From Syntrophales bacterium (lineage in GTDB: Bacteria; Desulfobacterota; Syntrophia; Syntrophales; PHBD01), in the NCBI GenBank assembly GCA_035363115.1, contig DAOSEM010000001.1, forward strand, positions 335,356 to 399,355: 64,000 bases of DNA. Reading direction: 5' to 3'. The notes beneath the pieces are model-generated. The model was not told where the DNA came from. It made no database searches and worked only from the letters and a program-made list of their open reading frames with translations. This document shows positions 1,853 to 63,970 of the stretch, piece by piece (position 1 is the first letter of the stretch; each line of letters opens with the position of its first letter). The translations under genes and the position numbers were made by a program.

Positions 1853-2272
1853 ATGGAAAGCCGTTTCCGGGATTACAATCTGGCCCTCTTCTCGGGTGGG
1901 CGCCGGATTTTCACATCGATGGGGAAGGGGCTCCGGCCGCTGTTGGAGTGCCTGGACGCCTGCCGGGGTCTCCGGGACTGCGTGCTCCACGACAAGATCA
2001 TGGGGCTGGCGGCGGCCCGGCTGGCGGCGGACTCGGGGATCGTGCGGGAGATCGTGTCCCGGACGGCCTCGGAGCCGGCAGCGCGCTTCCTGGAAAGGAG
2101 GGGGCTCCCGCTGGAGGTGGAGGAGACCGTTCCCGCCATCCTCACGCTGGATGGCGGCGCCGTCTGTCCCGGGGAGCGGATCGCCCTGGCCGTGGAAGAT
2201 CCGGTGCGGTTTGAAGCGGAGATCCGGGCCATGATCGCCTCCGGCTCGGCCGGGCGGCCCGCCGGTCAGTAG
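1853..2272 (+). CDS. DUF1893 (TM1506-like) domain protein
   Basis: MESRFRDYNLALFSGGRRIFTSMGKGLRPLLECLD...VLHDKIMGLAAARLA...AVCPGERIA resembles the DUF1893 pattern. The start was chosen at the in-frame ATG 1853, because the longer track ORF runs through the repeat. Confidence 0.65.
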   Translation: MESRFRDYNLALFSGGRRIFTSMGKGLRPLLECLDACRGLRDCVLHDKIMGLAAARLAADSGIVREIVSRTASEPAARFLERRGLPLEVEETVPAILTLDGGAVCPGERIALAVEDPVRFEAEIRAMIASGSAGRPAGQ

Positions 2273-3231
2273 GCCATGCCCTTGAGGTCCTCCACGTAGA
2301 GTTGGGCCGAGTAAGCCGCGACGGCGCCATCACCGCATGCGGTGATGACCTGCCGCAGTGGAGTCGCCGTGCAGTCCCCGCAGGCGAACAGGCCCGGCGC
2401 CGACGTCCGCATCGCCCGGTCCACCCGGACGGCCCCGTCGGGCCCCCGGTCGACCAGGTCCCGGACGAGGTCCGTGTTCGGGATCAGGCCCACGAAGAGG
2501 AAGACCCCCTCTGCCGGGATCTCGCGCTCCTCTCCCGTTTTCACGTCCCGGAGGCGGACGGCCTCCACAGTCTCCTTCCCGAGGATTTCCCGGACGACGG
2601 AGTTCCAGGCAAAGGCGATCTTCTCGTTGGCGAAGGCCCGGTCCTGGAGGATCCCCGTGGCGCGGAGACGGTCCCGCCGGTGGACCACGGTGACCTTCCC
2701 GGCAAAGTGGGTCAGGAACAGGGCCTCCTGGACGGCCGTGTTGCCTCCCCCGACGACGACCACCTCGCGGTTTCGGTAAAACGGCCCGTCGCAGGTGGCG
2801 CAGAAGGAGACTCCACGGCCGATGTACTGTTCCTCCCCCGGGACGCCGAGCCTCCTCCAGGAGGCCCCCGTAGCCAGGACAACCGACAGGGCATCGATCG
2901 TTTTCCCGCCCGCGCCGATCCGCCAGACCGGCAGGTCTCCCCGTCGGCCGGCTTCCAGAGACGTCGTGTCCTCGGACAGGATTTCCAGGCCGAACTGCAC
3001 CGCCTGCTTCTTCAGGCGTTCCACCAGGTCGAATCCGTTGATGCCCTCCGGAAACCCCGGATAGTTCTCGATCATGTCGGTGATGGTGATCTGGGAGACC
3101 GTGGAGGCTCCCTGGACCAGGATCGTCCGGAGGTTGGCCCGGGCGGCGTAGATGCCCGTCGTCAGGCCCGCCGGACCTCCACCGATGATGGCCACGTCGA
3201 AGTAATGATCCGGGTGCGCCGCTTCTGCCAT
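2266..3231 (-). CDS. trxB: thioredoxin-disulfide reductase
   Basis: FDVAIIGGGPAGLTTGIYAARA, redox-active CATCDG, second Rossmann VVVVGGGNTAVQEA. Start at MAEAAHPD (ATG 3231). Confidence 0.9.
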   Translation of the reverse strand: MAEAAHPDHYFDVAIIGGGPAGLTTGIYAARANLRTILVQGASTVSQITITDMIENYPGFPEGINGFDLVERLKKQAVQFGLEILSEDTTSLEAGRRGDLPVWRIGAGGKTIDALSVVLATGASWRRLGVPGEEQYIGRGVSFCATCDGPFYRNREVVVVGGGNTAVQEALFLTHFAGKVTVVHRRDRLRATGILQDRAFANEKIAFAWNSVVREILGKETVEAVRLRDVKTGEEREIPAEGVFLFVGLIPNTDLVRDLVDRGPDGAVRVDRAMRTSAPGLFACGDCTATPLRQVITACGDGAVAAYSAQLYVEDLKGMAY

Positions 3232-3317
3232 GGAAAGCCTCCTGCCCGCCGGTTGCGGAATGGTTTCCCATCCTTTAGACAATCGGACCGGCCGTGTCAA
3301 CGGGAGGCCTTTTTCCC

Positions 3318-3346
3318 TTGGCAACCAGGGGCGGGTGTGCTATGAA
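3318..3346 (+). promoter_or_regulatory. candidate sigma-70 promoter of yebC-ruvCAB
   Basis: TTGGCA (3318-3323), 17 nt spacer, TATGAA (3341-3346). Motif match only. Confidence 0.3.
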
Positions 3347-18014: not shown

Positions 18015-18806
18015 TCAGAGCAGCGACCGGTCCCGGAGGATCCGGAGGAGCTCAAGGGCCTTCTCCTCCGTCGTCCCTTCCAGGAAGCGGCAGGATGCGG
18101 CCGGCGGGGCCGAGACCCCGAGGGAGCGCTCCCGGATCTCCGGGGCCGGCAGGGTATCCGCGGGGACTTCCGTGAGACCCTGCGAGCGGGCCCGGAGCAC
18201 GTGCGACAGGGCCGGGTAGCGAGGCCGGTTGATTCCCGTCTGAACCGCCACGACCGCCGGGAGGCGGATCGCCAGGATCTCCCTTCTGCCCCCCTCCATC
18301 TCCCGTTCCACGACGATGCAGGAACCTTCCAGACCAGCCTGTTCCCCGGGGCTGACATCAAGACGGACCGCGGAGGTGGCCCACGGCCAGTCCAGGCGCG
18401 CCGCCAGCATGGGCCCGGTCTGGCCGTGCATGTCGTCCTCCGAGAGCGTTCCCGCCAGGATCAGGTCGTATCCCCGACCCTCGGCCCAGGCGGCCAGGAG
18501 GGCGGAGATCTCCGAGGGCATCGGGTTTGCGTCTTCCTCCATGAGGATCAGGATTCCTTCGTCGGCGCCCATCTCCAGGGCCCGTCGCAGGGCGGCCCGC
18601 ACGCGCGGGGGACCGGCGGAGACGGCGTCGATCCGCGTGCCCGGGAGCGCCTCCCGGATCCGCAGGGCCTCCTCCAGGGCGTGCTCATCGTAGCGGTTGA
18701 TCCGCCAGTCCGCTCCTTCGGCGGCCCTCCAGCGGGTCCCGCTGTCGTCCGGTGCCACCGGGGCGTCGTCGTCCGGGACTTGCTTGATGCACACCAGGAT
18801 CTTCAT
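18015..18806 (-). CDS. etfB: electron transfer flavoprotein beta subunit-like protein
   Basis: MKILVCIKQVPDDDAPV...RINRYDEHALEEALRI...YDLILAG; its ATG overlaps the stop of the upstream response regulator (ATGA). Confidence 0.8.
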   Translation of the reverse strand: MKILVCIKQVPDDDAPVAPDDSGTRWRAAEGADWRINRYDEHALEEALRIREALPGTRIDAVSAGPPRVRAALRRALEMGADEGILILMEEDANPMPSEISALLAAWAEGRGYDLILAGTLSEDDMHGQTGPMLAARLDWPWATSAVRLDVSPGEQAGLEGSCIVVEREMEGGRREILAIRLPAVVAVQTGINRPRYPALSHVLRARSQGLTEVPADTLPAPEIRERSLGVSAPPAASCRFLEGTTEEKALELLRILRDRSLL

Positions 18807-31991: not shown

Positions 31992-33284
31992 ATGCCGAAA
32001 GCAATGAAGAAATCAGCGAAAAACGGGCAGACCGCTTCGAAGATCCGTTCGATCGAGCAGCGTTACCGACGGATTTTTGAGGCGCTCAGCAAGTCGGAGC
32101 AGGAGAAGTCGGTCATCCTCGACGCCATGACCGAGCTGGTCCTGTATCTCGATACGGACATGCGGATCATCTGGGCCAACAAGGCCATGCACGACGCCTT
32201 CCGCCTCGTGCCGGGCCGGTTGACCGGAAAGCACTGCTACCGGGCGCTGCACCGCCGAACCAGGACCTGCAGCATCTGCCCGGCGGAAAAAACCCTCGAA
32301 TCCGGCGAGCCCCGGGAAGTCGTCGATTTTTCATCATACGGGAAAAACTGGGTGCTCCGCAGCTATCCCGTCCGGAATGAAAAGGACATTCTCACCGGCG
32401 TCGTCGAAATCGTCACGGACACCACCGAGCGCATCCGCGCCGAGGAGGCGATGCGCCTCTCGGAGCAGAGATACCGCGAGCTTTTCGAAAACGCCACCGA
32501 CATCATCTTCATTCTGGACCTGAAAGGCCGGATCCTCTCCTGCAACGCCTCCGTCTCCAGGACGTACGGCTACGAAAAGGAACAGCTCCTGGGGCGCAGC
32601 ATCGAGACCCTTCTGGACCGGGACTATGTGCCCGTCGTCCGGGACCTGATCCGGAAAAAGCGGGATGGCCTGCAGGTTCCGAACCCCATCGAATTTCTCA
32701 CCTGCACAAAGGACGGCGGGATCGTCTGGCTGGAGGTGAGCGCCCGGATCGTGAAGGAAAACGGGCGGCAGGTGTCGATCCACGGCATTGCCCGCAACAT
32801 CACCGAGCGCAAGCTGATGGAGGAGGCCCTGAAGAAGAGGGAGCGGGAGTTGGAGGAACAGTCCCGCAACCTGGAGGACGCCAACACGGCCCTGAAGGTT
32901 CTGCTCAAGCGCCGGGAAGAGGACAAGTCGGAGCTGGAGGAGAAGGTCACCTTCAACATGAGGGCGCTGATCCTGCCGTACATCGAAAACCTGAAGATCA
33001 CCCATCTCGACAGCCACCAGCGGAATCAGCTCGACATCCTCGAGCGAAACACGAGCGAGATCGTTTCCCCGTTCCTGCGCACCCTCTCCTCGAAATACCC
33101 CAATCTCACGCCGATGGAGATCAAGGTGGTCAATTTCATCAAGGAAGGGCGCACGACGAAGGAAATGGCGGCTCTTCTGCACGCATCCGCCCGGACCGTG
33201 GAGGTCCACCGGGACAACATCCGGAAAAAGATCGGACTGAGGAACCGGAAGGCGAATCTGCGGTCTCATCTGCTGTCTCTCTGA
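31992..33284 (+). CDS. PAS-domain LuxR-family transcriptional regulator (no receiver domain)
   Basis: Two PAS-like segments, a coiled-coil stretch, and a C-terminal LuxR HTH LTPMEIKVVNFIKEGRTTKEMAALLHASARTVEVHRDNIRKKIGL. Confidence 0.8.
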   Translation: MPKAMKKSAKNGQTASKIRSIEQRYRRIFEALSKSEQEKSVILDAMTELVLYLDTDMRIIWANKAMHDAFRLVPGRLTGKHCYRALHRRTRTCSICPAEKTLESGEPREVVDFSSYGKNWVLRSYPVRNEKDILTGVVEIVTDTTERIRAEEAMRLSEQRYRELFENATDIIFILDLKGRILSCNASVSRTYGYEKEQLLGRSIETLLDRDYVPVVRDLIRKKRDGLQVPNPIEFLTCTKDGGIVWLEVSARIVKENGRQVSIHGIARNITERKLMEEALKKRERELEEQSRNLEDANTALKVLLKRREEDKSELEEKVTFNMRALILPYIENLKITHLDSHQRNQLDILERNTSEIVSPFLRTLSSKYPNLTPMEIKVVNFIKEGRTTKEMAALLHASARTVEVHRDNIRKKIGLRNRKANLRSHLLSL

Positions 33285-33338: not shown

Positions 33339-33482
33339 ATCTTTCCGGATTGCCCTGTTCCAGAATCGGTGGTTTTGTTCCATCATGCGTTACCCCGGGG
33401 GTTCCCGGCGCGGAAATTCGAGGGGGATTCTCCGTCTCCGGAGAGTTCTGTCAGCCTGTCCACTTAAGCGGGGGGAAAATCG

Positions 33483-34022
33483 ATGACGAAAGAAGAGAAG
33501 ATCGAGGAAATCCGCCAGCGGGCCCGAAAGAATTTCTCGCTCGGATACAACTGCGCCGAGTGCGTGACCGAGGCCATTCTTTCCCTTGTCGACACGGGGC
33601 TGCCGGCGGAGGTGAAGAAGTGCGCCACGGGCTTCGGCGGCGGGATCGGGCTGTTCGGAGACACCTGCGGAGCGCTTGCCGGGGCCGTCATGGCCGTCAG
33701 CGCAGTCCACGGGAGAAGCAACCTTCCTGAAGGCGAGGGCAAGGAGGCGGTGAAGAAAGCCGCGGATCAGCTCTATGGAAGGCCCGGCCTGTACCGGCTG
33801 TTCAACATCATTCCCAACCGGTTCCAGACCAAGTACGGGAAAACCCTTTGCCGTGAGCTTACCACCCAGTGGCAGTCCACCTGGCTCTGCCGTGATCATG
33901 CGCTCTTCTGCAGGGATCTCATCACCGAGGCGGCGGGTATTGCGGGGGAGCTGGTTCTTTCCGACCGGGAGGCGCTGGCTTCGGGGAACTTCGGAACCAA
34001 CGTCGAAAACCTGAAAGACTGA
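33483..34022 (+). CDS. C_GCAxxG_C_C family redox-active protein
   Basis: GYNCAECVTEAIL...GFGGGIG..GDTCGALAGAVMAV...CRELT...C. Confidence 0.8.
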   Translation: MTKEEKIEEIRQRARKNFSLGYNCAECVTEAILSLVDTGLPAEVKKCATGFGGGIGLFGDTCGALAGAVMAVSAVHGRSNLPEGEGKEAVKKAADQLYGRPGLYRLFNIIPNRFQTKYGKTLCRELTTQWQSTWLCRDHALFCRDLITEAAGIAGELVLSDREALASGNFGTNVENLKD

Positions 34023-34037
34023 CAGGAGATCAACGAC

Positions 34038-35372
34038 ATGAGTCAACGATTGGTGGTCATTGGTGGCGGGGCTGCAGGTCCTTCCACGGCGGCGGAAGCC
34101 AAGCGGAGGAACAAGTCTTTCGATGTATGCATGATCGAGGGCGGCGACTTTGTCTCCTATGCCGCCTGACCGATGCCTTATTACATCGGTGATGTAATCA
34201 AGGACTACAAGCGGTTGGTGATCCGGACGCCGGAAGAGTTCGGGAAGACGGGAATCGAGGTTAAGATCAGGACCCGGGCCCTTGATATTGATCTCCGGAA
34301 AGGACTGGTCCATCTGTCCGATGATTCCAGCATTCCCTATGACTTCCTGGTCATGGCGACGGGTGCTGAGGCCGTACGCCTGGATATCCCGGGGGCCGAT
34401 CTGGAAGGAGTCTTCGTCCTGAGAAACCTGACGGATGCCCTGCGTTTCAAATCCTACCTGAACGAGCACAATTGCCGGAAGGCCGTTCTGATCGGCGGTG
34501 GTTTTATTGCGATGGAGATGTGCGAGGCCCTCAGGAACCTGGGAATTGAGACAACCGTGATGATCCGGGGTTGCCGGCCGGTCACCCGCTGGGATCCCGA
34601 GTTCACGAACCTGATTGTCGAGGAGCTGAAGCAAAACGATGTGACCTTTCTGCCGGAAACGAAGCCCCTGTCCATTGAAAGAGGAACGAACGGCGGACTT
34701 GTGCTGAACACGGACAAGGGCGAGGTGGCTGCCGACATTGTCTTGTCGGGAGTGGGCATACACAGCAGTACGAAGCTGGCGAAGGCCATCGGCCTGGAAA
34801 TGGGGGCAAGCGGGGCCATCAAAGTGGATCATCGGCAGCGGACCTCCATCGAAGGGATCTACGCCGTCGGTGACTGCTGCGAGGTTTTTCACAAGGTTGC
34901 CGGGCGCTGGGTCTATTTGCCCCTGGGAGACATCGCCAACAAGCAGGGCCGGGTGGCCGGCCAGAATATCGGTGGACACATGGCGGAATTCCCGGGGGTT
35001 GTCGGTGCGCAATCGTTCAAGGTGTTCGATCTCGAGGTCGGGGCTGCGGGGCTGACAGAGGACGAGGCCGTCCGCTATGGATTCCAGCCGGTCAGCACGA
35101 TGATCTGGGGTCTTCCCATCGGGCGCCCCATGTCGAGAGGCGAGAAGTTGGGCGTGAAACTCATTGCCGACAAAACCTCGGGAAGACTCCTCGGCGGACA
35201 ATGCATCGGCGAAAAAGGAGCCATCCAGCGAACCTTTGCCCTGTCGGTTGCCCTGTGGTCGGAACTGAGCATCGACGAGGTGGGGTATCTGGACTTGCCC
35301 TACTCCCCGCCTTTCGGAGGTGCCTGGGACGCGATTCACGTTGTGGCCCAGTCCCTGCGGGCCAGGATGTAG
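34038..35372 (+). CDS. CoA-disulfide reductase / NADH oxidase family flavoprotein with in-frame TGA (probable selenocysteine at codon 44)
   Basis: ATG 34038 gives MSQRLVVIGGGAAGPSTAAEAKRR...DFVSYAA-TGA(34167-34169)-PMPYYIGDVIKD, in the same frame as track ORF 34173..35372. The N-terminal GxGxxG is supplied only by the upstream 43 codons. The TGA sits where the family has its catalytic Cys. A SECIS-like hairpin follows. Confidence 0.75.
34176..34203 (+). promoter_or_regulatory. SECIS-like recoding hairpin
   Basis: CCTTATTACATC-GGT-GATGTAAT(C)AAGG forms 12 bp with one bulged C and an apical GGU. The stem begins after a 6-nt gap from the UGA, and the loop is about 20 nt after it. Confidence 0.55.
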
Positions 35373-35459
35373 CCGGCAGGCATCCTGCCGGAAGGCAGGA
35401 AGGGCCGATGAGAGCGCCCCCTTGGGCAGATGAATGGCGGGACGGAAGGCAGGTACCGG

Positions 35460-35837
35460 ATGAAGAAAAAAGCGAAGAAAGCAGACACAAGCGCGGTTGA
35501 ATCAGGGTTTGACGTGGTCAGCGTCCATATCGGGACAGAAGATCCGGTTGTCTACAGGGGACTGGGCGGAACGTTCGCCAGTTTCGCCGACAGCTGCCTT
35601 CGCAAGCGGGTCCTGCCGGGCTTCCATCAAAAGGGGCTGATCGCGGAAGCGGAGCCGAAAGAGTCGGGCCTTGTCCTCTGCTTATCCGGCAAGCGCAGCG
35701 AGAAAAGGCTTCGGGAAATCATGGACATCGCGTTGGTCAACACGGGAGCCTATCCTTCCAGGGGGGGGAAGGCTGGATTTTCCATAAACGTCACATCAAA
35801 GATGCAGGACGTGAAAAGGAGGAAATCATGGCTCTGA
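35460..35837 (+). CDS. hypothetical protein (125 aa)
   Basis: MKKKAKKADTSAVESGFDVVSVHIGTEDPVVYRGLGG...; its 3' end overlaps the next gene start by 10 nt. No family recognised, and the RBS is weak. Confidence 0.4.
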   Translation: MKKKAKKADTSAVESGFDVVSVHIGTEDPVVYRGLGGTFASFADSCLRKRVLPGFHQKGLIAEAEPKESGLVLCLSGKRSEKRLREIMDIALVNTGAYPSRGGKAGFSINVTSKMQDVKRRKSWL

Positions 35838-37279
35838 AGACGGCGAACGAGTTTTTGGACACCATCCGGAAAATGAAGCCCCGCGTATACTGCGGGGGGA
35901 AATGGGTGACCGGCCTGCTTGACAACCCGGTCACGCGGTCCATGGTCATGGCCAACTCGGCAATCTACGGCCTGGCCGAGGATCCGGCCAACAAGGAGGT
36001 GATGGTGGCGACCTCCCACCTGACAGGGGAGCCGATCAACCGCAACCTGAACGTCGCCCGGAACATCCACGACCTGGACATGCGTCAGGAGATGGCGCTC
36101 CTCACAAGCCAGACGGTGGGCACCTGCAACTACCGCTGCGTCGGCTGCGATGCCCTCAACAGCCTGGCCGCCACGACGTGGGAGATGGATCAGGCCCTGG
36201 GGACGAACTACGAGGAGCGGTTCAACAAATGGCTGGCCTTTGCCCAGGCCAACGACCTGGCCGTGTCCGGAGCCATCACCGACGCCAAGGGCGACCGGAA
36301 GAAACGCCCCTCCCAGCAGGATGAGATCGACACCTTCGTCCACCTGGTGGAGAAGCGAGACGACGGCATCGTGGTCAGGGGGATCAAAGTGAGCCAGAGC
36401 GGCGCCATCGGCTCCCATGAAACCCTGGTGCTTCCGGGCGGGGCCCTCAAAGAGGGGGAAGAGAAGTTCGCCCTGGCTTTTGCAGTCCAGAACAGCGTCC
36501 CGGGGCTGTCCTACATCTGCCAGTACAACGCCTACTCCGCGGAGCGGGAGATGTTCGGCGACGAGGAATGCGAGCTGGGGAACCCGATTTACGGCCAGCG
36601 GGAGACCTCGACGATGGTGTTCGACAACGTCTTCATCCCCTGGGAGCGGGTTTTCCTCTGCGGCGAGACCAAGTACTGCGGGCGGATGGTCACCCGGTTC
36701 GCCAAGGCCCACCGCATGAACTGCGGAGGGGCCTGCAAGGTGGGGTTCGCCGACCTGATCATCGGCGGCACCATGCTGGCCGCCGAGTACATCGGAGTGG
36801 AAAAGGTCCCCCACATCCAGGAGAAGATCATCGATATGGTCCGTTTCAGCGAAACCTCCCACGCCTGCGCCATCGCGGCCGCCATGAGGGGGCGGGAGGA
36901 GCCGAAGGGCTCCGGTGTCTACCTGCCGGACGACCTGTTCGGCAATGCCGCCAAGCTGAACATTGCCCACGGGTTCTGGGAGATCATCAAGAACGCCGGG
37001 GACATCGGCGGCGGCCTGGTGGTGACCATGCCGAGGCTGAAGGATCTGGAGGACCCGGAAGTCGGCCCCGTTCTGAAGAAGGCCTTCGGGGCCGCGGCTC
37101 CGGCGGACAAGCGGCTGAAAGTCGCCAAGTTCCTGCAGCACTGGTCGGCGGGACTTCACGGGCCCGGGACCTGGCATGGCGCCGGCGCCCCCCAGACCCA
37201 GCGGTTCATGTTCACGGTGCTGACGGATTTCGACGCGAAGAAGAAGATGGCCAAGAAGATTATGGGGATGAAGGACTGA
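35828..37279 (+). CDS. abfD: 4-hydroxybutyryl-CoA dehydratase / vinylacetyl-CoA isomerase family protein (HpaB-like fold)
   Basis: MALKTANEFLDTIRKMKPRVYCGGKWV..., Cys pair in GTCNYRCVGCDAL as in the Fe-S site of AbfD. About 483 aa. Confidence 0.8.
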   Translation: MALKTANEFLDTIRKMKPRVYCGGKWVTGLLDNPVTRSMVMANSAIYGLAEDPANKEVMVATSHLTGEPINRNLNVARNIHDLDMRQEMALLTSQTVGTCNYRCVGCDALNSLAATTWEMDQALGTNYEERFNKWLAFAQANDLAVSGAITDAKGDRKKRPSQQDEIDTFVHLVEKRDDGIVVRGIKVSQSGAIGSHETLVLPGGALKEGEEKFALAFAVQNSVPGLSYICQYNAYSAEREMFGDEECELGNPIYGQRETSTMVFDNVFIPWERVFLCGETKYCGRMVTRFAKAHRMNCGGACKVGFADLIIGGTMLAAEYIGVEKVPHIQEKIIDMVRFSETSHACAIAAAMRGREEPKGSGVYLPDDLFGNAAKLNIAHGFWEIIKNAGDIGGGLVVTMPRLKDLEDPEVGPVLKKAFGAAAPADKRLKVAKFLQHWSAGLHGPGTWHGAGAPQTQRFMFTVLTDFDAKKKMAKKIMGMKD

Positions 37280-40602: not shown

Positions 40603-43600
40603 CTACCCCCAGAGAATCAGCCCCATCTCCTGGAGCGTTGCCAGCTGCGGATGGAACGGCAGTACGCGGATCCCGTAGGAGAACATCCCGTTTTCCCGAA
40701 CGGTGTACTCGCCGGAAAAGACCAGCATGCCGCTTTTCTCCACGTCCGCGACTTTCAGGGGGACTCGTTGCGGAGAGCCGGTAAAGCCGTGGCTGTCCCG
40801 GAGGCCGACGACCATCTCCACGAGAATCTCCTCGGGTGCCATCTTTCCCGGATCGATCCGGACCTGGACGGACAGGGGCTGGTCCACCACGATCGTGTCC
40901 CCGTGGATGCCCCCGATGGACACTTCCTGGAGTTTCAGGGAGGAGAACCGCATGGGCACCTTGCGCTTCCAGTCGACGATCGTGCGGGCCAGGGCGAACC
41001 CCTCCGACGTCAGCTCCTGATCCCGCTGCGCCGCGGGCCGGTACATCAGGCTGTAATACTCGGAAAGCATCCGCTCGGTGTTGAATTTTGGAACCAGGGT
41101 CTGCATGGAGCGTTTGACCGCGGCCATCCAGCGTTCCGGAACCCCGGAAAGATCGCGGTCATAGAAGGTGGGGATCACGGTTTCCTCGAGGAGATCGTAG
41201 AGATCCCGCCCGTCCTCCTCGTCGGCATTGGGCCGCTCCTCCACCTGTTGCCGCACCAGCGGGCCCATCGTCCAGCCGTTTGTCCCGTCGAAGCCCTCGG
41301 GCCACCATCCGTCGGAGACGCTCAAGTTCAGGACGCCGTTGGCTGCCACCTTCATGCCGCTTGTACCGCTGGCCTCGTAGGGGCGCCGGGGTGTGTTGAG
41401 CCAGAGATCGACTCCCTGGACCAGCATCCGTGCGCTGCCGAGGGAATAGTCTTCGATGAAGAAGATGCGGCCCCGGAACCGGACGTCCCGGCAGACGTCG
41501 ATGACGCGCTTCACGAGGTTCTTCCCCATGTCGTCGTTGGGGTGGGCCTTGCCGGCGAAGAGGATGTGCACCGGCCGGGTCGGATGGTTGACGATGCGGT
41601 CCAGCCGGTCCAGGTCCGACAGGAGCAGGTCCGCCCGCTTGTACGGCGCGAAGCGGCGTGCGAATCCGATCAGGAGCGCCGAAGGATTCAGCCGGGAAAA
41701 CATGTCCTCCCTCCAGTTTTTCCAGGAGGGAAACTTTGTGTCCGTCGCGGCGGTATAATCCCGGAGGTAGTCGAGCAGCCGCTGTTTCATCTCGTGGCGG
41801 ATCCGCCAGAGCTGAATATCCGGGATGTCCTGGATGCGCCGCCAGCGTTCCGGATCCGTCAGGTGCTTTTCCCAGTCCATTCCGAGGTACGTGTCGAAGC
41901 ACTCCTTCATCCGGGGGGCGATATAGGACATCACATGGACGCCGTTGGTGATCTGTCCGATGGGAATGTCCGAATCGTCGAACCCCTTCCAGACGTCCCG
42001 CCACATGTGCCGGGCCACCTGCCCGTGGAGGTTGCTCACGGCGTTGCTCCGGTGGGACATCTTGAGGGCCAGGATGGTCATGAAGAACGGCTTGTCGTCG
42101 CCCCGTTCCTTCCGGCCGAGGTCCCAGAACCGGGCCCAGGACAGGCCGAAGCGCTTCATGTATCCTCCGAGGTACGACTCGATCAGGTCCTTCGAGAAGC
42201 GCTCGTTTCCCGCTTCCACGGGGGTGTGTGTGGTGAAGACCGTGCTGCCGTGGACGACCTCCGCCGCCTCCTCCAGGGACAGCCCCTCCCCGCTCATCAG
42301 GTCGGCGGTCCGCTCGAAGATCAGGAATGCCGAGTGTCCCTCGTTGATGTGATAGACCCGGGGACGGATGCCCAGCTTCTTCAGGAGGCGGACTCCCCCC
42401 GCTCCCAGCAGGATCTCCTGCTCGATCCGCACTCGCGGGTCGGCCCCGTAGAGACGGGACGTAATGGAGCGGTCCTGGAGTGTGTTCCTCGGAACATCCG
42501 TGTCCAGGAGGTAGAGAGATACACGGCCCACCTTGATTTCCCAGATGTTTGCGTACAGGGTGCGCCCGGGGAGCTCCAGGGAGATCTGGACATCCGCTCC
42601 CAGATCGTCACGGACGATCTGCACGGGCAGGCTGGAGAAGTCGTTCTCGGGATACTCGGCGACCTGGATGCCGTTCCGGTCGATGAGTTGCCGGAAGTAG
42701 CCGTTTTTGTAAAGCAGCCCTACCCCGACGAGGGGGATGTTCATGTCGCTGGCGGTCTTGAGATGGTCCCCGGAGAGCGTGCCCAGGCCGCCGGAATAGA
42801 TGGGAAGGCACTCGTGGAGACCATACTCGGTCGAGAAATAGGCCACCGGGCTGGACCAGCGGATGCCGTTTGCGGCGTAGGGGTTGCTGTCGGAGGTCTT
42901 CTCCTCCATGTAGTCGTCGAACTGGCCCATGATCTGGCCGTACAGGGCCATGTAGCTCGGGTTTTCCGCCGCTTCGGAGATCCGCTCGGAGCTCACCGTT
43001 TCGAGCATCCGCACGGGATTGTTTCCCATGTCAAGCCAGAGCTTCGGGTCCAGCGTGGCGAACAGGTCCAGGGCCCGGGGAGTCCAGACCCACCAGAGGT
43101 TGTATGCCAGCTCGCGCAGGCGGCCGATCTTTTCCGGAAGGTGGGCCACCGCGGTGAAGGTCCGGAAATGGGGCTGGGTGGAGGCGGTGCCCGCAAAGAC
43201 GTGCTTCTTCTCGCCATCCTCGGTCACTGCCATCTTGGCGGACCGCTCGAAGGCCGTTCCCAGGGCCCGGTCGTAGGCCGCCAGGTAGGCCCCGTAAAAA
43301 TCGTGCCAGCCGGCATGCAGGGCCAGGAGGCGTGCGCCCTTGCGCATCCGGAGCCAATCCGGCTCCGTCCAGGCAAAGCTTTCCCGGAGGATCTCCTTGA
43401 GCTCCTCCTCCACGGTCGCCGGTTCCTGGTTGCGCCGGTCCAGGATCCTCACGCCGTCATAACCGCCGCTCATCTGCCGGACCCACTGCCCGAACCCGGC
43501 CAGATCGGTGGAGACGGTCGGTACGGCAAAGGCGGCGCACTCCAGGGGGGTGTATCCCCATGGCTCATAATAGGAGGGGAAGACGCCCATGTCGCATCCC

Positions 43601-44856
43601 TGGAGGGCTTCATAGTAGGGAAGGTTGAGAAAACCGTCTTTCCCATCCAGCGGGGCCGGAACGAAGATGACGCTGACCCGGTTTTCGGGCATGTTCCGGA
43701 GACCCAGCCGCTTGCAGGTCTCCATGACAGGATCCGAGGCCCCGTAGTGAAGGCGGTGCGTGGCGATGGGAAGCGGACCCGAATCGGTCCGCGTATAGTG
43801 CTCCTTGAGAGAGGGCAGCAGGTCCATGTGGCCGCCCATGACGAAGAGGAAGGCCACGGCCGACTGTTCCGCTTCGAGTTCCCGCTCGAGGCGGCCCAGG
43901 GCTCCGAGGAACACGTCGATCCCCTTGTTGTGGAACTCGTAGCGGCCGGATGTCAGGAAAATCCGCGAGCTTTGCGGGAGGTCGCGGCGGAGGAACCGGG
44001 AGGCCGCCTCCAGCAGGATCCTTCTCGACGTCTCCGACGGTTCCCGGTCTTCCGTCAGGTCCGGGATGGTTTCCATGTCCAGCCCGTTGGGGGTGATCAC
44101 GTCGGGTGACCGGCCGAGGATGTTGCGGGCCTCCAGGGCGGTGATCTCGCTGACCGTCGTGAAGCAGTCGGCCTCCCGGGCCGCCACCTGCTCCATGGAA
44201 AATTTCGCGCTGATGTTGTGGACCACGGCCTCTCTCTGGGGAGACAGGTGTTCCATCGAACCGTACAGGTCCATGCCGGTGCCCGAGAGGGTGCGGCCCA
44301 GGATGGTGGCGTGGGTGGTGAATACGGTTGCCATCTCGGGAATCCGCCGCTTCAGGTAGAGAAGACCCGCCCCGCACATCCATTCGTGAAAGTGGGCGAT
44401 CGCGGGGTTGCCGGCGGGCCTGGCCAGGACGTTGTACGCCGTTTCGATGACCTCTCCCGCGGCACTGCTGAACATGACGGGCTCCACGTAGTCCCAGCCG
44501 CCGGTCATCGAATCGACCCCCCAGTTTTCCCAGATCCGGAAGAGAAGCTGGTCCTTGTCGTAGCGGTTGCGGAACTCCACGAGGATGACTTTCGGACGTC
44601 CCGGAATCCGCCACCGGCCGAAGCGGCAGGGGAGTTCCTTGATGGCCGTTGCTTCGCGGATCCGGTTCCAGCATTCCTCGTCCGTTTCCTCGAACTCGGT
44701 GTAGTTCTTGAGATCCGGACCCAGCAGGATGCAGCGGTCTCCGAAGGTGCGCAGGACCTCCCGCATCTTGCTCGTGAGGACGGTGTGGATCCCGCCTACC
44801 TTGTTGCATACCTCCCAGCTGACCTCAAACAGGTAGGTGTTCCGGTGTTCCGTCAT
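40603..44856 (-). CDS. fusion protein: GT3-type glycogen synthase (N-terminal) + alpha-glucan phosphorylase GT35 (C-terminal), 1417 aa
   Basis: N-terminus YLFEVSWEVCNKVGGIHTVLTSK resembles the eukaryote-type glycogen synthase signature. The C-terminal half carries YNLWWVWTP... (DUF3417-like) and EASGTSGMKVAANGVLNLSVSDGWW (PLP-Lys motif of phosphorylases). ATG 44856 is preferred over the TTG at 44898. Confidence 0.85.
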   Translation of the reverse strand: MTEHRNTYLFEVSWEVCNKVGGIHTVLTSKMREVLRTFGDRCILLGPDLKNYTEFEETDEECWNRIREATAIKELPCRFGRWRIPGRPKVILVEFRNRYDKDQLLFRIWENWGVDSMTGGWDYVEPVMFSSAAGEVIETAYNVLARPAGNPAIAHFHEWMCGAGLLYLKRRIPEMATVFTTHATILGRTLSGTGMDLYGSMEHLSPQREAVVHNISAKFSMEQVAAREADCFTTVSEITALEARNILGRSPDVITPNGLDMETIPDLTEDREPSETSRRILLEAASRFLRRDLPQSSRIFLTSGRYEFHNKGIDVFLGALGRLERELEAEQSAVAFLFVMGGHMDLLPSLKEHYTRTDSGPLPIATHRLHYGASDPVMETCKRLGLRNMPENRVSVIFVPAPLDGKDGFLNLPYYEALQGCDMGVFPSYYEPWGYTPLECAAFAVPTVSTDLAGFGQWVRQMSGGYDGVRILDRRNQEPATVEEELKEILRESFAWTEPDWLRMRKGARLLALHAGWHDFYGAYLAAYDRALGTAFERSAKMAVTEDGEKKHVFAGTASTQPHFRTFTAVAHLPEKIGRLRELAYNLWWVWTPRALDLFATLDPKLWLDMGNNPVRMLETVSSERISEAAENPSYMALYGQIMGQFDDYMEEKTSDSNPYAANGIRWSSPVAYFSTEYGLHECLPIYSGGLGTLSGDHLKTASDMNIPLVGVGLLYKNGYFRQLIDRNGIQVAEYPENDFSSLPVQIVRDDLGADVQISLELPGRTLYANIWEIKVGRVSLYLLDTDVPRNTLQDRSITSRLYGADPRVRIEQEILLGAGGVRLLKKLGIRPRVYHINEGHSAFLIFERTADLMSGEGLSLEEAAEVVHGSTVFTTHTPVEAGNERFSKDLIESYLGGYMKRFGLSWARFWDLGRKERGDDKPFFMTILALKMSHRSNAVSNLHGQVARHMWRDVWKGFDDSDIPIGQITNGVHVMSYIAPRMKECFDTYLGMDWEKHLTDPERWRRIQDIPDIQLWRIRHEMKQRLLDYLRDYTAATDTKFPSWKNWREDMFSRLNPSALLIGFARRFAPYKRADLLLSDLDRLDRIVNHPTRPVHILFAGKAHPNDDMGKNLVKRVIDVCRDVRFRGRIFFIEDYSLGSARMLVQGVDLWLNTPRRPYEASGTSGMKVAANGVLNLSVSDGWWPEGFDGTNGWTMGPLVRQQVEERPNADEEDGRDLYDLLEETVIPTFYDRDLSGVPERWMAAVKRSMQTLVPKFNTERMLSEYYSLMYRPAAQRDQELTSEGFALARTIVDWKRKVPMRFSSLKLQEVSIGGIHGDTIVVDQPLSVQVRIDPGKMAPEEILVEMVVGLRDSHGFTGSPQRVPLKVADVEKSGMLVFSGEYTVRENGMFSYGIRVLPFHPQLATLQEMGLILWG

Positions 44857-44894
44857 GAATCGTGCTCCCTGCGCTTGCTGGACCGGCTTCCCGT

Positions 44895-46094
44895 TCAATC
44901 CCCGGGGGGCAGGAGCCGGTAGATGCCGTCAATGATTTCCGCCGCAGCCTGCCACCGGACCGCCTCCGCTTCCGTCCGGACCGATTCCGCCAGGGCCGCT
45001 GCCCCGGCCGGATCGGCCAGGAGGTCGAGAATGTTCCGGGCCAGCCCTTCCGTGTCCCAGAAATCGAACTGCCGTGCCGATTTCAGCACTTCCGCGACCC
45101 CCGACTGGCGGGATATGATCACCGGGATACCCCGGCGGGCCGCTTCCAGCGGGGCGATTCCGAAGGGTTCGGAAACGCTGCTCAGCACAAAAAGATCGCA
45201 CGCGGCCAGGGCGTTCTCGACCTCCCGCCCCTCGAGAAATCCGGGAAAGCGGACCCGGTCGGCGATTCCGAGGTCCCGTGCGTGCCGCTTCGCGTCGTCC
45301 AGTCCGTCCCCGTCTCCGGCCATGATGAAGGTCGCCTCCGGCATCTCCCGGAGGACATGCCCGGCGGACTCCAGAAAAAACCGGGGGCCTTTCTGATACG
45401 TGATCCTTCCCAGGAATAGAACGGTTTTCCCGTCCCGGTCCCGAACCGGGAACGGTCCCTCCTCCATGCCCGGATCGGCTGCGTTGTGCGCGACGGTGAC
45501 CCGCTCCGTTGGGATCCCGTAGCGGCTCACGATCATGTTTTTCAGAAAGGCGCTCACAGCGATGACGTGATCCGCCCGCTCCATCCCGTATCGTTCGATT
45601 TCAAAGATGTTCCGGTTGATGTCCTCGCCCCGGCGGTTAAATTCCAGGGAATGGAAATGGAAGACCAGGGGCCTGCCGGAGGTCTCCCGCGCCCGGACCG
45701 CGGCAAAGGCCGTCATCCAGTCGTGGGCGTGAATCACGTCGAAAGCGAGGTCCCGGGCGAGCCAGGACGCCTCTTCGCCGTACCGGATCACCTCCGAGAG
45801 GAGATCCGGCCCGTAGCCGCTCTCCGGAGCCGGATCGGCCGCTCCCTCTTCGCGAAGAGGCGGCTGCAGGTAGGATGCCGGCGTCTGGTAAGGGGTCAGG
45901 GGAGATGGCACGGGCCGCACCTCCATCTCCCGGCTGCCGGCGTTTCCTGTGCCCGATGCCGTGTCACTGCGTGGAAAGACGAGGATCACCTCGTGGCCCA
46001 TCCCGGAAAGGGCGTCCGTGATTCCCCGGCAGGCCGGACCGATGCCGCCGCTGGACCGGGCCGAGAATTCCCAGCCGAACATCAGAACGCGCAA
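44895..46094 (-). CDS. glycosyltransferase family 4 (GT-B) protein
   Basis: MRVLMFGWEFSARSSGGIGPACRGITDAL...; C-terminal SEPFGIAPLEAARRGIPVIIS (EX7E-type motif). Confidence 0.8.
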   Translation of the reverse strand: MRVLMFGWEFSARSSGGIGPACRGITDALSGMGHEVILVFPRSDTASGTGNAGSREMEVRPVPSPLTPYQTPASYLQPPLREEGAADPAPESGYGPDLLSEVIRYGEEASWLARDLAFDVIHAHDWMTAFAAVRARETSGRPLVFHFHSLEFNRRGEDINRNIFEIERYGMERADHVIAVSAFLKNMIVSRYGIPTERVTVAHNAADPGMEEGPFPVRDRDGKTVLFLGRITYQKGPRFFLESAGHVLREMPEATFIMAGDGDGLDDAKRHARDLGIADRVRFPGFLEGREVENALAACDLFVLSSVSEPFGIAPLEAARRGIPVIISRQSGVAEVLKSARQFDFWDTEGLARNILDLLADPAGAAALAESVRTEAEAVRWQAAAEIIDGIYRLLPPGD

Positions 46095-53271: not shown

Positions 53272-53577
53272 ATGAAGACCAGGAAATCCACAGCCGGTAG
53301 TCGGATGGAGAAAGCGGATGATCCCGTCCGGGTCGTGGAACGGATGATGGAGATGAAGCTCGAGGATATCGCCACGGTGCTGGGCGCGTCGGGCAATGGA
53401 AAAAGCCGGCTCCATGAAAATGTGATGACGATGGTGGAGCGGAGCCTCTTCCGGATCGCCCTCGGCCGTTCCGGCAATGTGCGCAGCAAGGCCGCGGCAT
53501 ACCTGGGGATCAACCGGAACACCTTCCAGAAAAAACTGATCCGGCTTGGTCTGGACGGCAATCCGGAGGAGGAGTGA
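53272..53577 (+). CDS. small Fis-type helix-turn-helix DNA-binding protein
   Basis: C-terminus GNVRSKAAAYLGINRNTFQKKLIRLGL is a typical Fis HTH. The start is uncertain. Confidence 0.6.
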   Translation: MKTRKSTAGSRMEKADDPVRVVERMMEMKLEDIATVLGASGNGKSRLHENVMTMVERSLFRIALGRSGNVRSKAAAYLGINRNTFQKKLIRLGLDGNPEEE

Positions 53578-53628
53578 GGATGCCGGGGGAGAAACCGGAC
53601 CGGACTTCGGTACGGGAGAGGCCGGGAG

Positions 53629-54890
53629 ATGGATGATGCTTTCCTGCCCGCCACCATACGCAGGCTCCTCGAGAAAGGCGTCCGCATCCCTCATCCCTGG
53701 ACCGTCGAGGTGGGGGATGAGGTTTCCCTCGACCGCGTCTCCGGCCGGGGCGTTGTCCTCCATGGCGGTGTCCGGCTTCGCGGTGAACGGACGCTCCTCT
53801 GTGACGGGGTAAAACTGGGGGCGGAAGGCCCGGCCGTCGTGGAAAACTGCCTCGCGGGGCCCGACGTCGAACTGAAAGGCGGCTTCTTCCGGGGGTCGGT
53901 TTTCCTCCGCGGCGTTCAGATCGGTTCCGCCTCCCATGTCCGGGAAGACTGCCTCCTCGAGGAAGAATCCTCCGGAGCTCATGCCGTCGGACTCAAGCAG
54001 ACCATCCTTTTCCCCTTCGTGACCCTCGGCAGCCTGATCAACTTCTGCGACTGCCTCATGGGGGGCGGCACGAGCCGCCGAAACCACAGCGAGGTGGGAA
54101 GCTCCTTCATCCATTTCAATTATACCCCCCGGCAGGACAAGGCGACGGCGTCTCTTCTCGGCGATGTTCCGCGCGGCGTCATGCTGGATCAGCCCCCCAT
54201 CTTTCTCGGCGGGCAGGGAGGAATCGTCGGGCCCGTCCGGATGGGGTTCGGAACGGTCCTTCCCGCCGGTTCGATCTGCCGCCGGGACGTTCCGGAGGGA
54301 GGCGTGACAACCGGCGAAGACGGCAGGGACCGGATTGAAGGACCCTTCCTCTCGAAACGGGGGGGGGATCTTGCCAGAAAAGTGCGGAACAACCTCCTGT
54401 ACATAGCCAATCTTTTCGCCCTGCGGGCCTGGTATGCACAGGTCCGGAGTCCCTTTTTCCGCGCCGCTTCGCACGAAGCGGAGCTGCTGCCGGGTGCGCT
54501 GGACGTCCTCGAAGGGGCGATTGCGGAGCGGCTTCTGAGGCTTCGGAATGTCGCCGCAAAACTGCCGCCGGAGGGCGAAGCGACCGGACCGGCGGGGGTT
54601 GTATCCGAACGCCGCCGGCAATTCAGGGAGCGGTGGCCGGAAGCCGAGGAGGTCCTTCAGGACGGAGCCGGGGATTGTGGAGATCCGATGCTCCGGGACC
54701 GGTTCCTGGCCGTCCGGGACCGGCTGGCGGGACGTCCGGCTGGGGCGGCGGACTATCTTCCCTTCATCCAGGCGCTCAAAAAGCCGGAGCGCCTCCTGGG
54801 GACGGCCTGGCTGGAGAGCATCGTGAACGACCGGATGGAACGGGTTCTGGGTGTGCTGACGGCCTTCCGTTCCGGGCCTGTGGAGGCGGC

Positions 54891-54894
<4 letters not shown>
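53629..54894 (+). CDS. hypothetical protein with hexapeptide-repeat-like (left-handed beta-helix) N-terminal half and helical C-terminal half
   Basis: Periodic segments VVLHGGVRLRGERTLLCDGVKLGAEGPAVVENCLAGPDVELKG... and HSEVGSSFIHFNYTPRQDKATASLLGDVPRGVMLDQPPIFLGGQGGIVGPVRMGFGTVLPAGS resemble acyl/nucleotidyl-transferase LbH folds. Its stop overlaps the next ATG (ATGA). Confidence 0.6.
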
Positions 54895-60268
<5,374 letters not shown>

Positions 60269-62950: not shown

Positions 62951-63970
62951 ATGATGGCCCAGCAGCCCCCTCCCCCGATCCATGTAGACACCGTCGCCAT
63001 CGCCTGGCACAGCGGCGAGGATCCCCTTCCGGGAACCTGCGAAGCCGTCTCGGCGGCCCGGTTCCTGAGCGCCGCTCCGGTGGGGAGGACGGTCGTCGCG
63101 ATGTGCGGCGCCAACCCGGAGGCGGCCGCCCGCAAGGTCGCCGCCGATACGGGACTGCCGGTGTTCGCCCTTCGGGGATCGTCGCTCGATCCCGCCGCCG
63201 GGGACGACGCCGTCCCGGCGCTGGCCTCGTTCCTCCGTGTTCTCGATCCCGCCCTGATCATCCTGGTCCATGATTCCCACGGAGCCGATCTGGCTCCCGC
63301 CCTGGCTGTCCGCCTGGGCGCCGCCTGCATCACCGCCGTGGAGGAGTTTTCTTTCCGGGACGGCCGGCGAACGTTCCTCCGCCCGGTCTGCCGGGGGCGG
63401 ATGCGGATGGAGATTCTGCCTGAGACGGCGTGTACCGTCCTGACCGTCCTGCCCGGCGCCGTCAGCCCCGGCTTTCCGGAGGATGATCGTGCCGGCGGCC
63501 GGAATACAAGGACGGTTTCCGTCCGGATCCGGGATGCAGAGCCCGGGCGCGGCAGGGTCGCGCTGCGGGGTGAAGTCTGCGGCGAGGAAGGCGGTGTTGA
63601 ACTGGCGGAGGCGGACGTGATCGTTTCGGCGGGACGGGGAATCGGTCGGGAAGAGAACCTCGATCTGATCCGGCGCCTGGCGGGCCTGTTTCGGAACGCC
63701 GCCGTGGGCGCTTCCCGTCCCGTCTGCGACCAGGGCTGGCTCGGGTATCGGCACCAGGTCGGCCTTACGGGCCAGACCGTTGCACCGGACCTTTATGTGG
63801 CCTGCGGGATCTCCGGGACATCGCAACACCTGGCCGGGATGAAGGGCTCCCGCTGCATCGTCGCCGTCAACCGGGATCCTGCCGCCCCGATTTTCCGGGC
63901 GGCCCATTACGGAGTCGTCGAGGACCTGACGGTCTTTCTTCCCCGGCTGATCGAGGCGGTGAAGGGTTAA
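62951..63970 (+). CDS. etfA: electron transfer flavoprotein alpha subunit
   Basis: C-terminal FAD-binding region VGASRPVCDQGWLGYRHQVGLTGQTVAPDLYVACGISGTSQHLAGM...IVAVNRDPAAPIF. Confidence 0.85.
   Translation: MMAQQPPPPIHVDTVAIAWHSGEDPLPGTCEAVSAARFLSAAPVGRTVVAMCGANPEAAARKVAADTGLPVFALRGSSLDPAAGDDAVPALASFLRVLDPALIILVHDSHGADLAPALAVRLGAACITAVEEFSFRDGRRTFLRPVCRGRMRMEILPETACTVLTVLPGAVSPGFPEDDRAGGRNTRTVSVRIRDAEPGRGRVALRGEVCGEEGGVELAEADVIVSAGRGIGREENLDLIRRLAGLFRNAAVGASRPVCDQGWLGYRHQVGLTGQTVAPDLYVACGISGTSQHLAGMKGSRCIVAVNRDPAAPIFRAAHYGVVEDLTVFLPRLIEAVKG

Follow-up and report, generated by a model that had tools for sequence, protein, structure and literature searches.

The 'NADH oxidase' family is one of 25 bacterial selenoprotein families and was at first known only from Geobacter metallireducens (Zhang et al. 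2006, PMC1794560); it is also listed in PMC9312934 and PMC13188914. A selenocysteine (Sec) 'NADH oxidase' has also been found in an Olavius symbiont. The gene described here lies on the forward strand of a 64,000-nucleotide stretch of DNA from a Syntrophales bacterium (assembly GCA_035363115.1, contig DAOSEM010000001.1, positions 335,356 to 399,355; hereafter the window, by whose own numbering positions are given) and very probably encodes a further member of this family, in which an in-frame TGA specifies Sec in place of the catalytic cysteine. The original prediction, made without database searches, held that Sec-containing NADH oxidase homologues had been reported in anaerobic deltaproteobacteria, and correctly so (PMC1794560, PMC9312934, PMC13188914). 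It also regarded the gene as a selenoprotein prone to mis-annotation rather than as a new family, a view that is upheld since the family is already listed in surveys and the gene is deposited as fragments of 399 amino acids. Like the known Sec 'NADH oxidases', the product would belong to the same superfamily with Sec at the single catalytic Cys and a Sec insertion sequence (SECIS) directly downstream within the coding sequence, and it shares with them the anaerobic deltaproteobacterial hosts and the tendency to be mis-annotated. Unlike the known proteins, for which the motif UGxP is published (PMC13188914), the clade to which it belongs reads U-P-M-P, with the proline at +3 kept and proline instead of glycine at +1. 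The clade is found in Syntrophales and Smithellaceae, and the family is absent from the 19 selenoproteins listed for Syntrophus aciditrophicus in 2006 (PMC1794560). Judged by the published motif, the U-P-M-P clade appears to be a separate sub-family, set apart from the Geobacter member within the same superfamily and with the same Sec position. No published description of a U-P-M-P clade in Syntrophales was found in the literature searched, and the interpretation of the gene as a new, clade-specific and mis-annotated member of a known selenoprotein family is well supported.

The reading frame runs from ATG 34038 to the stop codon TAG at 35370-72 and comprises 444 codons plus the stop, with a single interruption at codon 44, the TGA at 34167-69. 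The probability that 34038-35372 is one selenoprotein gene with Sec encoded by UGA44, mis-split by gene callers, is put at about 0.9. A mechanical list of open reading frames (ORFs) starts the gene at ATG 34173 and yields 399 amino acids because the in-frame TGA interrupts the frame; the earlier description of a frame open from ATG 34038 apart from this TGA, with the ORF track starting only at 34173, is confirmed in every sequence detail. On the read-through product the Pfam domain Pyr_redox_2 (PF07992) spans residues 4-285 (5e-57) and is continuous across the TGA, followed by Pyr_redox (PF00070, residues 148-219) and Pyr_redox_dim (PF02852, residues 326-428), with scores of 194, 63 and 39.6 bits, respectively, all above the cut-offs. 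The Rossmann motif GGGAAG for binding flavin adenine dinucleotide (FAD) occupies residues 9-14 and is part of the product only with read-through, and the peptide that spans residue 44 is SFDVCMIEGGDFVSYAA[U/C]PMPYYIGDVIK. The split is found in public data as well: an identical sequence (JGI metagenome 3300009707, contig Ga0116195_1000030; 0 mismatches over 21.2 kb) is called as ORFs of 43 and 399 amino acids, and among the best 120 homologue clusters about 110 proteins are exactly 399 amino acids long and start with MPYYIG, the other nine being full-length (438-479 amino acids). Metabolic reconstructions of Syntrophales and Smithellaceae that rely on such fragments, which lack the FAD-binding fold and the catalytic residue, would overlook a whole redox enzyme and arrive at too few selenoproteins. 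An ORF of 649 amino acids on the minus strand (33390-35339) covers the gene and was rejected as an antisense artefact of a window with 63.5% GC, its GC content at third codon positions being low (0.60).

The TGA falls on the column of the catalytic cysteine, as had been predicted. Position 44 is aligned with the catalytic Cys both of the NADH oxidase 6ruz ('vsygaCglpy') and of the coenzyme A (CoA) disulfide reductase (CoADR) 4fx9 ('vshapCgipy'), the local motif S40-Y-A-A-U44-P-M-P47 matches S-x-x-x-C-x-x-P, and the wider context is FVSYAA-U/C-PMPYYIGD. All nine full-length close homologues have Cys at this column and read FVSYAACPMPYYIGD (FVSYAA-C-PMPYYIG). A scan for relatives with one genome per species gave 50 loci, without exception from Syntrophales, Smithellaceae and related metagenome-assembled genomes (MAGs) of Thermodesulfobacteriota, of which 47 include the N-terminus. 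Codon 44 is TGA in 42 of these 47 and TGC or TGT in the remaining five. In all 47 loci the 43 upstream codons encode a conserved Rossmann segment, which is conserved at the protein level with freely varying synonymous sites. Pro45 is invariant in the clade (51/51 sequences). A Cys form that is 75% identical (P0002) resides in a fully syntenic locus, and the Sec and Cys forms are therefore orthologues.

Immediately downstream of the TGA the messenger RNA can form a hairpin. Nucleotide conservation alone proves nothing here because the hairpin overlaps the conserved peptide YYIGDVI, and synonymous entropy (H) was measured instead over codons 1-75 in 40 TGA-bearing sequences. Codons 48 (TAT), 49 (TAC), 50 (ATC), 52 (GAT) and 53 (GTA) show no synonymous variation (H = 0), and the paired bases come precisely from these five codons and the first two positions of codon 54. 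Every other degenerate conserved codon in the region varies, with entropies of 0.38-2.25 bits. The variation extends to the edges of the stem: the wobble position of the loop codon is free (GGT in 28 and GGC in 12 of the 40 sequences), as is the base immediately 3' of the stem (ATC/ATA/ATT). Purifying selection at the RNA level thus falls exactly on the stem of 8 base pairs (bp) at 34180-87/34191-98. This stem is perfectly Watson-Crick paired at 8/8 positions in 42 of 43 Sec forms versus 2 of 11 Cys forms (Fisher p = 1.7e-7 for the set of 40 versus 11, with phylogenetic kinship ignored), and the sole exception among the Sec forms has a D52G change that leaves a U-G pair. At the frozen sites, Cys forms show synonymous substitutions (TAC>TAT, GAT>GAC, GTA>GTG and ATC>ATT) that are never seen in the Sec forms. 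The constraint on the hairpin is tied to Sec.

The archetype of the bacterial SECIS is that of Escherichia coli fdhF, and sequence identity between different SECIS elements is not expected. The original prediction described a 12-bp stem with one bulged C and a GGU apex, and this extended hairpin, CCUUAUUACAUC-GGU-GAUGUAAU(C)AAGG at 34176-34203, is indeed present in the window, starting after a gap of 6 nucleotides (nt) from the UGA and containing 12 bp with the bulged C34199. It is both the minimum free energy (MFE) and the centroid structure; a 66-nt context folds at -21.3 kcal/mol (z = -2.36, 2/200 shuffles as good) and the extended hairpin alone at -9.5 kcal/mol. The conserved element is smaller and consists only of the 8-bp stem AUUACAUC/GAUGUAAU with a GGY loop. 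The lower 4-bp stem (CCUU/AAGG) is complete in only 6 of the 40 Sec-type relatives; it is probably not essential, and the 12-bp stem as the functional unit was rejected. Published criteria for bacterial SECIS elements require a loop of 3-9 nt with a G within its first two positions, an upper stem of 4-16 bp, a spacing of 16-37 nt and an MFE of -7.5 kcal/mol or lower (PMC13188914, Fig. 2). The loop here has 3 nt (GGU, 34188-90) and begins with GG, the stem has 8 or 12 bp, the distance from the UGA to the loop is 18 nt (34170-34187) and the extended hairpin passes the energy threshold. The predicted resemblance to bacterial SECIS elements in spacing and loop is therefore borne out. As far as the model of Zhang & Gladyshev (2005) is summarised in PMC13188914, the consensus bacterial SECIS is likewise a hairpin within the coding sequence 3' of the UGA with a small loop that starts with GG or GU; the element described here differs in its minimal 3-nt loop, in the absence of a conserved lower stem or bulge and in the presence of a competing hairpin beside the UGA.

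Based on established bacterial Sec decoding and on what is known of the enzyme family, a ribosome would reach the UGA at 34167-69 while the mRNA from +11 nt onwards folds into the 8-bp hairpin with its GGU loop; SelB carrying Sec-tRNA(Sec) would bind the loop and bring Sec to the A site, and translation would go on. In the completed enzyme electrons would pass from NAD(P)H via FAD to Sec44, which would cycle between a selenolate and an oxidised state, either as a selenenylsulfide formed with a thiol substrate (CoA, for example) or as a selenenic acid. Such a scheme would leave the current understanding of Sec decoding unchanged.

Several observations weigh against a Sec-decoded gene with this hairpin as its SECIS. 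The stem is invariant and offers no compensatory covariation; for this reason synonymous-site entropy and the contrast between Sec and Cys forms took the place of covariation, and the support comes from the frozen synonymous sites. The conserved 19-nt core alone folds at -5.2 kcal/mol, which is weaker than the threshold of -7.5 kcal/mol, and the window passes only by way of the non-conserved lower stem. Rfam gave no match to a SECIS family at the gathering threshold, nor did a search of a 161-nt region at E<=10, which returned chance hits only. A competing 6-bp hairpin is formed by CCGAUG (34170-75) and CAUCGG (34184-89), is mutually exclusive with the SECIS stem, is possible in 36 of 40 Sec loci and, in many relatives, is the structure with the predicted MFE; a ribosome positioned on the UGA would melt it. 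The 43 upstream codons have a slightly negative codon-usage score (-7.3), though this is the best of the six frames. Lastly, tRNA-Sec was found neither in the window, where ARAGORN detects tRNA-Leu only, nor in 56 related loci, and selA, selB and selD were not found in the 64-kb window (Pfam on about 48 gene calls) or in the fetched flanks. The capacity of the source organism to insert Sec is inferred from the comparative signal and from lineage-level literature: the cultured Syntrophus aciditrophicus has SelD and 19 selenoproteins (PMC1794560), and several of the related loci come from MAGs labelled Syntrophus. As a separate observation, the codon for Pro45 is CCG in 37 of 40 Sec relatives and is less variable than other Pro codons. 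This bias and the competing hairpin could reflect selection on the context of the UGA or an 'anti-SECIS' that is melted by the ribosome.

Among the other explanations for the TGA, the one that survives best, though it is unlikely, is that UGA and SECIS are decoded as Cys, or as a mixture of Sec and Cys that depends on selenium supply, by means of a selC* tRNA-Cys and a second SelB (SelB*). Such tRNAs, some with a UCA anticodon, have been reported together with SelB* in Syntrophobacterales, Desulfobacterales and a composite Smithella genome (Mukai et al., PMC5389517). The signals in the mRNA would look identical, and Cys is functional at this site, as at least eight independent TGA>TGY replacements indicate. 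A plain TGY codon would then suffice without cost, yet 43 of 54 sequences, spanning about 50-100% protein identity, have kept TGA and the frozen hairpin, and this persistence where TGY works argues that Sec itself is selected. Neither selC* nor selB* was seen in the window.

Less likely still is that the TGA is a true stop which separates a 43-residue peptide from an independent protein of 399 amino acids starting at ATG 34173. Gene callers produce exactly this split, as the roughly 110 deposited clusters of 399 amino acids among the best 120 illustrate, and re-initiation is conceivable since the internal ATG is only 3 nt away from the stop. However, inspection of the sequence upstream of ATG 34173 revealed no purine-rich Shine-Dalgarno-like motif comparable to that of ATG 34038, the shorter product would lack both the GGGAAG motif and the catalytic residue, which are indispensable in the family, and the 43-codon segment is conserved in 42 other species as the very part of the domain that would be missing. 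Nor would there be a reason for a stop to coincide with the catalytic-Cys column just ahead of a hairpin whose synonymous sites are frozen. A pseudogene or an assembly or sequencing error, which a single window from a metagenome assembly cannot exclude, is effectively refuted, since the same TGA recurs in 42 species-level genomes that were assembled independently and also in several separate assemblies of the identical sequence, and since both halves of the gene are under purifying selection. Genome-wide reassignment of UGA to Trp or Gly (codes 4 or 25), for which nothing beyond the in-frame TGA itself speaks, is refuted because 31 of the 38 genes called with confidence in the window end in TGA, no further interrupted gene turned up and the homologous residue is Cys rather than Trp or Gly. 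Read-through extensions of the TGA-ended genes score as non-coding, with the exception of very short ones and of those that run into a following gene in the same frame. A codon-usage-scored read-through scan, which is insensitive to short N-terminal pieces and missed the gene described here itself, yielded only neighbouring genes with a common frame and no other convincing TGA-interrupted gene in the window. As TGA is an ordinary stop in the window, its use at codon 44 is a case of site-specific recoding and not of an altered genetic code.

The selenoprotein itself is predicted to be a homodimer-type, single-Cys pyridine-nucleotide disulfide oxidoreductase of the CoADR/NADH oxidase (Nox)/NADH peroxidase (Npx) family whose sole redox Cys is replaced by Sec44. 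Along its whole length of 444 residues the product aligns with Thermus thermophilus Nox 6ruz (6.5e-92), Pyrococcus horikoshii CoADR 4fx9/3kd9, Staphylococcus aureus CoADR 1yqz and Enterococcus faecalis NADH peroxidase 1joa, with E-values of 6.5e-92 to 2e-51. Like these solved Cys-type enzymes it has the fold and order of FAD Rossmann, NAD(P)H Rossmann and dimerisation domains with the catalytic residue in the same SxxxC column, and it differs from them in having Sec where they have Cys. Compared with homologues of about 570 residues such as 3nta and 8a56 it lacks the C-terminal rhodanese domain. The best-scoring profiles are the CoADR equivalogs NF007123 (369.6, cut-off 458), TIGR03385 (354.1, cut-off 578.8) and NF010037 (189.8, cut-off 394), all below their cut-offs; the H2O-forming NADH oxidase profile NF046103 reaches 214.4 with a cut-off of 600. 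By these profiles the product appears more CoADR-like than Nox-like while staying below both sets of cut-offs, and a substrate would not be assignable. The FAD motif GGGAAG lacks what is presumably the His10 typical of Nox and Npx, and an AKRR segment presumably resembles the CoA-phosphate-binding basic residues of CoADRs. A candidate for the thiol that resolves Sec44 is Cys280 (C280-C281 in the motif GDCCEVFH, window 34875-34880). It is conserved without exception in the clade (51/51 members) and recurs in more distant representatives (GDC...), whereas 6ruz and 4fx9 have Val at this position (GDVAE). Mammalian thioredoxin reductase likewise combines the FAD/NAD(P)H disulfide-reductase fold with Sec in redox catalysis. 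In the mammalian enzyme, however, the N-terminal CxxxxC dithiol is kept, Sec resides in a C-terminal GCUG tail and the SECIS is of the eukaryotic type in the 3' untranslated region; here Sec would replace the sole flavin-proximal Cys and the bacterial SECIS lies in frame.

In a quick neighbour-joining tree, built without bootstrap and with two Cys forms of 42-45% identity (L046, L047) as the root, there is one large Sec-dominated clade with an identical SECIS core in both of its deep sub-branches. The Cys forms occur as eight scattered tips or cherries, that is, as at least eight apparently independent TGA>TGY replacements. The simplest reading is a single old gain of Sec from Cys, followed by repeated reversions from Sec to Cys with decay of the hairpin after each. 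The extent of this decay differs among the Cys forms: the stem is intact in L026 and L055 and contains one wobble pair in L053 and L056; in L057, L058 and L059 4-7 of 8 positions pair when G-U is counted but no stable fold results (MFE -0.9 to 0.0 kcal/mol), and L039, L040, L046 and L047 have no hairpin. The reversions match the 'dynamic balance' that has been reported among bacterial selenoproteins (PMC1794560). The clade is a clean natural experiment on SECIS evolution, in which one hairpin is frozen over about 40 species and decays with at least eight Sec-to-Cys reversions, and it could serve as a benchmark for predictors of bacterial SECIS elements and selenoproteins. At 50% clustering the whole clade collapses to a single representative, and the next relatives are at most 46% identical. 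A protein of 38% identity (P0137, at L060:1394-2749 on a Logan SRR27730047 contig) belongs to a second mis-called Sec lineage with the sequence TSYAA-U-GIPYYVG, split into 44 and 398 amino acids. It reads U-G-I-P and is thus of the UGxP type, and its SECIS-like hairpin CGUCGGCA-GGU-UGC(U)CGACG has a stem that differs from that in the window but an identical GGU triloop, located 22 nt downstream of the UGA. The neighbours of this second gene encode hemerythrin, TusA, DsrE, a cysteine desulfurase-type aminotransferase and NifU, a sulfur-relay context unlike that in the window.

Table 1. Features of the selenoprotein locus in window coordinates
Feature	Position	Strand	Basis
PAS-PAS-LuxR/GerE regulator	31992..33284	+	Pfam; position kept in most close-clade loci
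C_GCAxxG_C_C putative redox protein	33483..34022	+	Pfam PF09719 4.5e-23; NCBIfam TIGR01909 'C-GCAxxG-C-C family (seleno)protein'
Shine-Dalgarno-like AGGAGA	34024..34029	+	8 nt upstream of ATG 34038; read from sequence
Predicted full-length selenoprotein gene, CoADR/Nox/Npx-family FAD/NAD(P)H flavoprotein with Sec44	34038..35372	+	Translation, Pfam, structure alignments, Cys orthologues of 443-445 amino acids
UGA predicted to be read as Sec, codon 44, catalytic-Cys column	34167..34169	+	Alignments to Cys enzymes; TGA conservation
10-nt spacer from UGA to conserved stem	34170..34179	+	Stem starts 11 nt after UGA
Extended hairpin, adds 4-bp lower stem CCUU/AAGG and bulged C34199	34176..34203	+	Fold -9.5 kcal/mol
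Conserved SECIS core, 8-bp stem AUUACAUC/GAUGUAAU and apical loop GGU	34180..34198	+	Zero synonymous variation; Sec-versus-Cys contrast; bacterial SECIS geometry
Conserved small ORF, no family	35430..35837	+	Close-clade loci, 38-64% identity in species-level relatives; overlaps AbfD-like start by 10 nt
4-hydroxybutyryl-CoA dehydratase/vinylacetyl-CoA isomerase-like (AbfD-like) gene	35828..37279	+	HpaB_N and HpaB; best PDB match 1u8v, 1.9e-109

The gene resides in a conserved block (Table 1) with the order PAS-PAS-LuxR regulator, C_GCAxxG_C_C protein, selenoprotein, a small ORF without family and an AbfD-like gene, and this block is kept in most of the about 40 fetched loci whose selenoprotein is at least 64% identical; the more distant Sec members are without it. 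The operon neighbours that had been proposed, a C_GCAxxG_C_C thiol protein and an AbfD-like dehydratase, are confirmed at 33483-34022 and 35828-37279, with the conserved small ORF preceding the latter. The C_GCAxxG_C_C gene ends 15 nt before the ATG of the selenoprotein gene, adjoins it in most close-clade loci at 72-97% identity and is likely to be co-transcribed with it. It was also considered as a further selenoprotein and rejected, being an all-Cys form with no in-frame TGA. The small ORF at 35430-35837 has no match in Pfam or NCBIfam, is called at 96-108 amino acids in relatives and contains a conserved G-L-x-G-T-F-A-x-F-x-D-x-C-x-R motif; its true start is probably downstream of 35430. 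In the AbfD-like protein, which is 85-96% identical across most loci that hold it, the residues aligned with C99, C103, H292 and C299 of 1u8v are conserved, and these are presumably the ligands of the [4Fe-4S] cluster. Directly after the TAG of the selenoprotein gene, at 35373-35392, is a perfect 8-bp GC-rich hairpin, CCGGCAGG-CAUC-CCUGCCGG, which has no U-run and is not a canonical intrinsic terminator; it may act as an mRNA-stabilising or attenuating element within the operon.

The conserved linkage to the C_GCAxxG_C_C protein and the AbfD-like dehydratase provides a testable functional lead. From this neighbourhood a CoA-linked thiol or selenol redox role that serves the oxygen-sensitive AbfD-like acyl-CoA enzyme would be a reasonable inference. 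A more specific and rather doubtful proposal is that the Sec flavoprotein acts as the dedicated reductase of a conserved four-gene redox module controlled by the PAS-LuxR regulator, whose other members would be the C_GCAxxG_C_C protein, the small protein of about 100 amino acids without family and the AbfD-like [4Fe-4S]/FAD radical dehydratase. Sec44, perhaps assisted by Cys280 as the resolving residue, would relay electrons from NAD(P)H to the C_GCAxxG_C_C protein or to a CoA-linked species and thereby activate, repair or protect the oxygen-sensitive dehydratase. If true, the enzyme family would gain a new physiological role, and C_GCAxxG_C_C proteins their first functional context.

The window contains a number of other features. 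A second pyridine-nucleotide disulfide oxidoreductase of 352 amino acids is encoded at 2266-3324 on the minus strand, where it adjoins a DUF1893/TM1506 gene; it matches general Pyr_redox-type Pfam domains only and has no in-frame TGA. A gene with only an electron transfer flavoprotein (ETF) domain (18015-18806, minus strand) and an ETF-alpha-like gene (62951-63970, plus strand), the latter preceded by a 113-amino acid ORF without family, are 44 kb apart, and the gene calls show no obvious partner subunit directly adjacent to either. On the plus strand at 54633-58658 is an ORF of 1341 amino acids in which Pfam recognises only a central SIS domain, preceded by a stretch of about 1 kb (53577-54633) without an accepted gene call. 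Finally, an ORF of 1431 amino acids on the minus strand (40603-44898) fuses Glycogen_syn, Glyco_transf_5, DUF3417 and alpha-glucan phosphorylase domains and is followed by a GT4 glycosyltransferase and a glycogen debranching enzyme; the same glycogen-synthase/phosphorylase fusion is also called in the relative L053.

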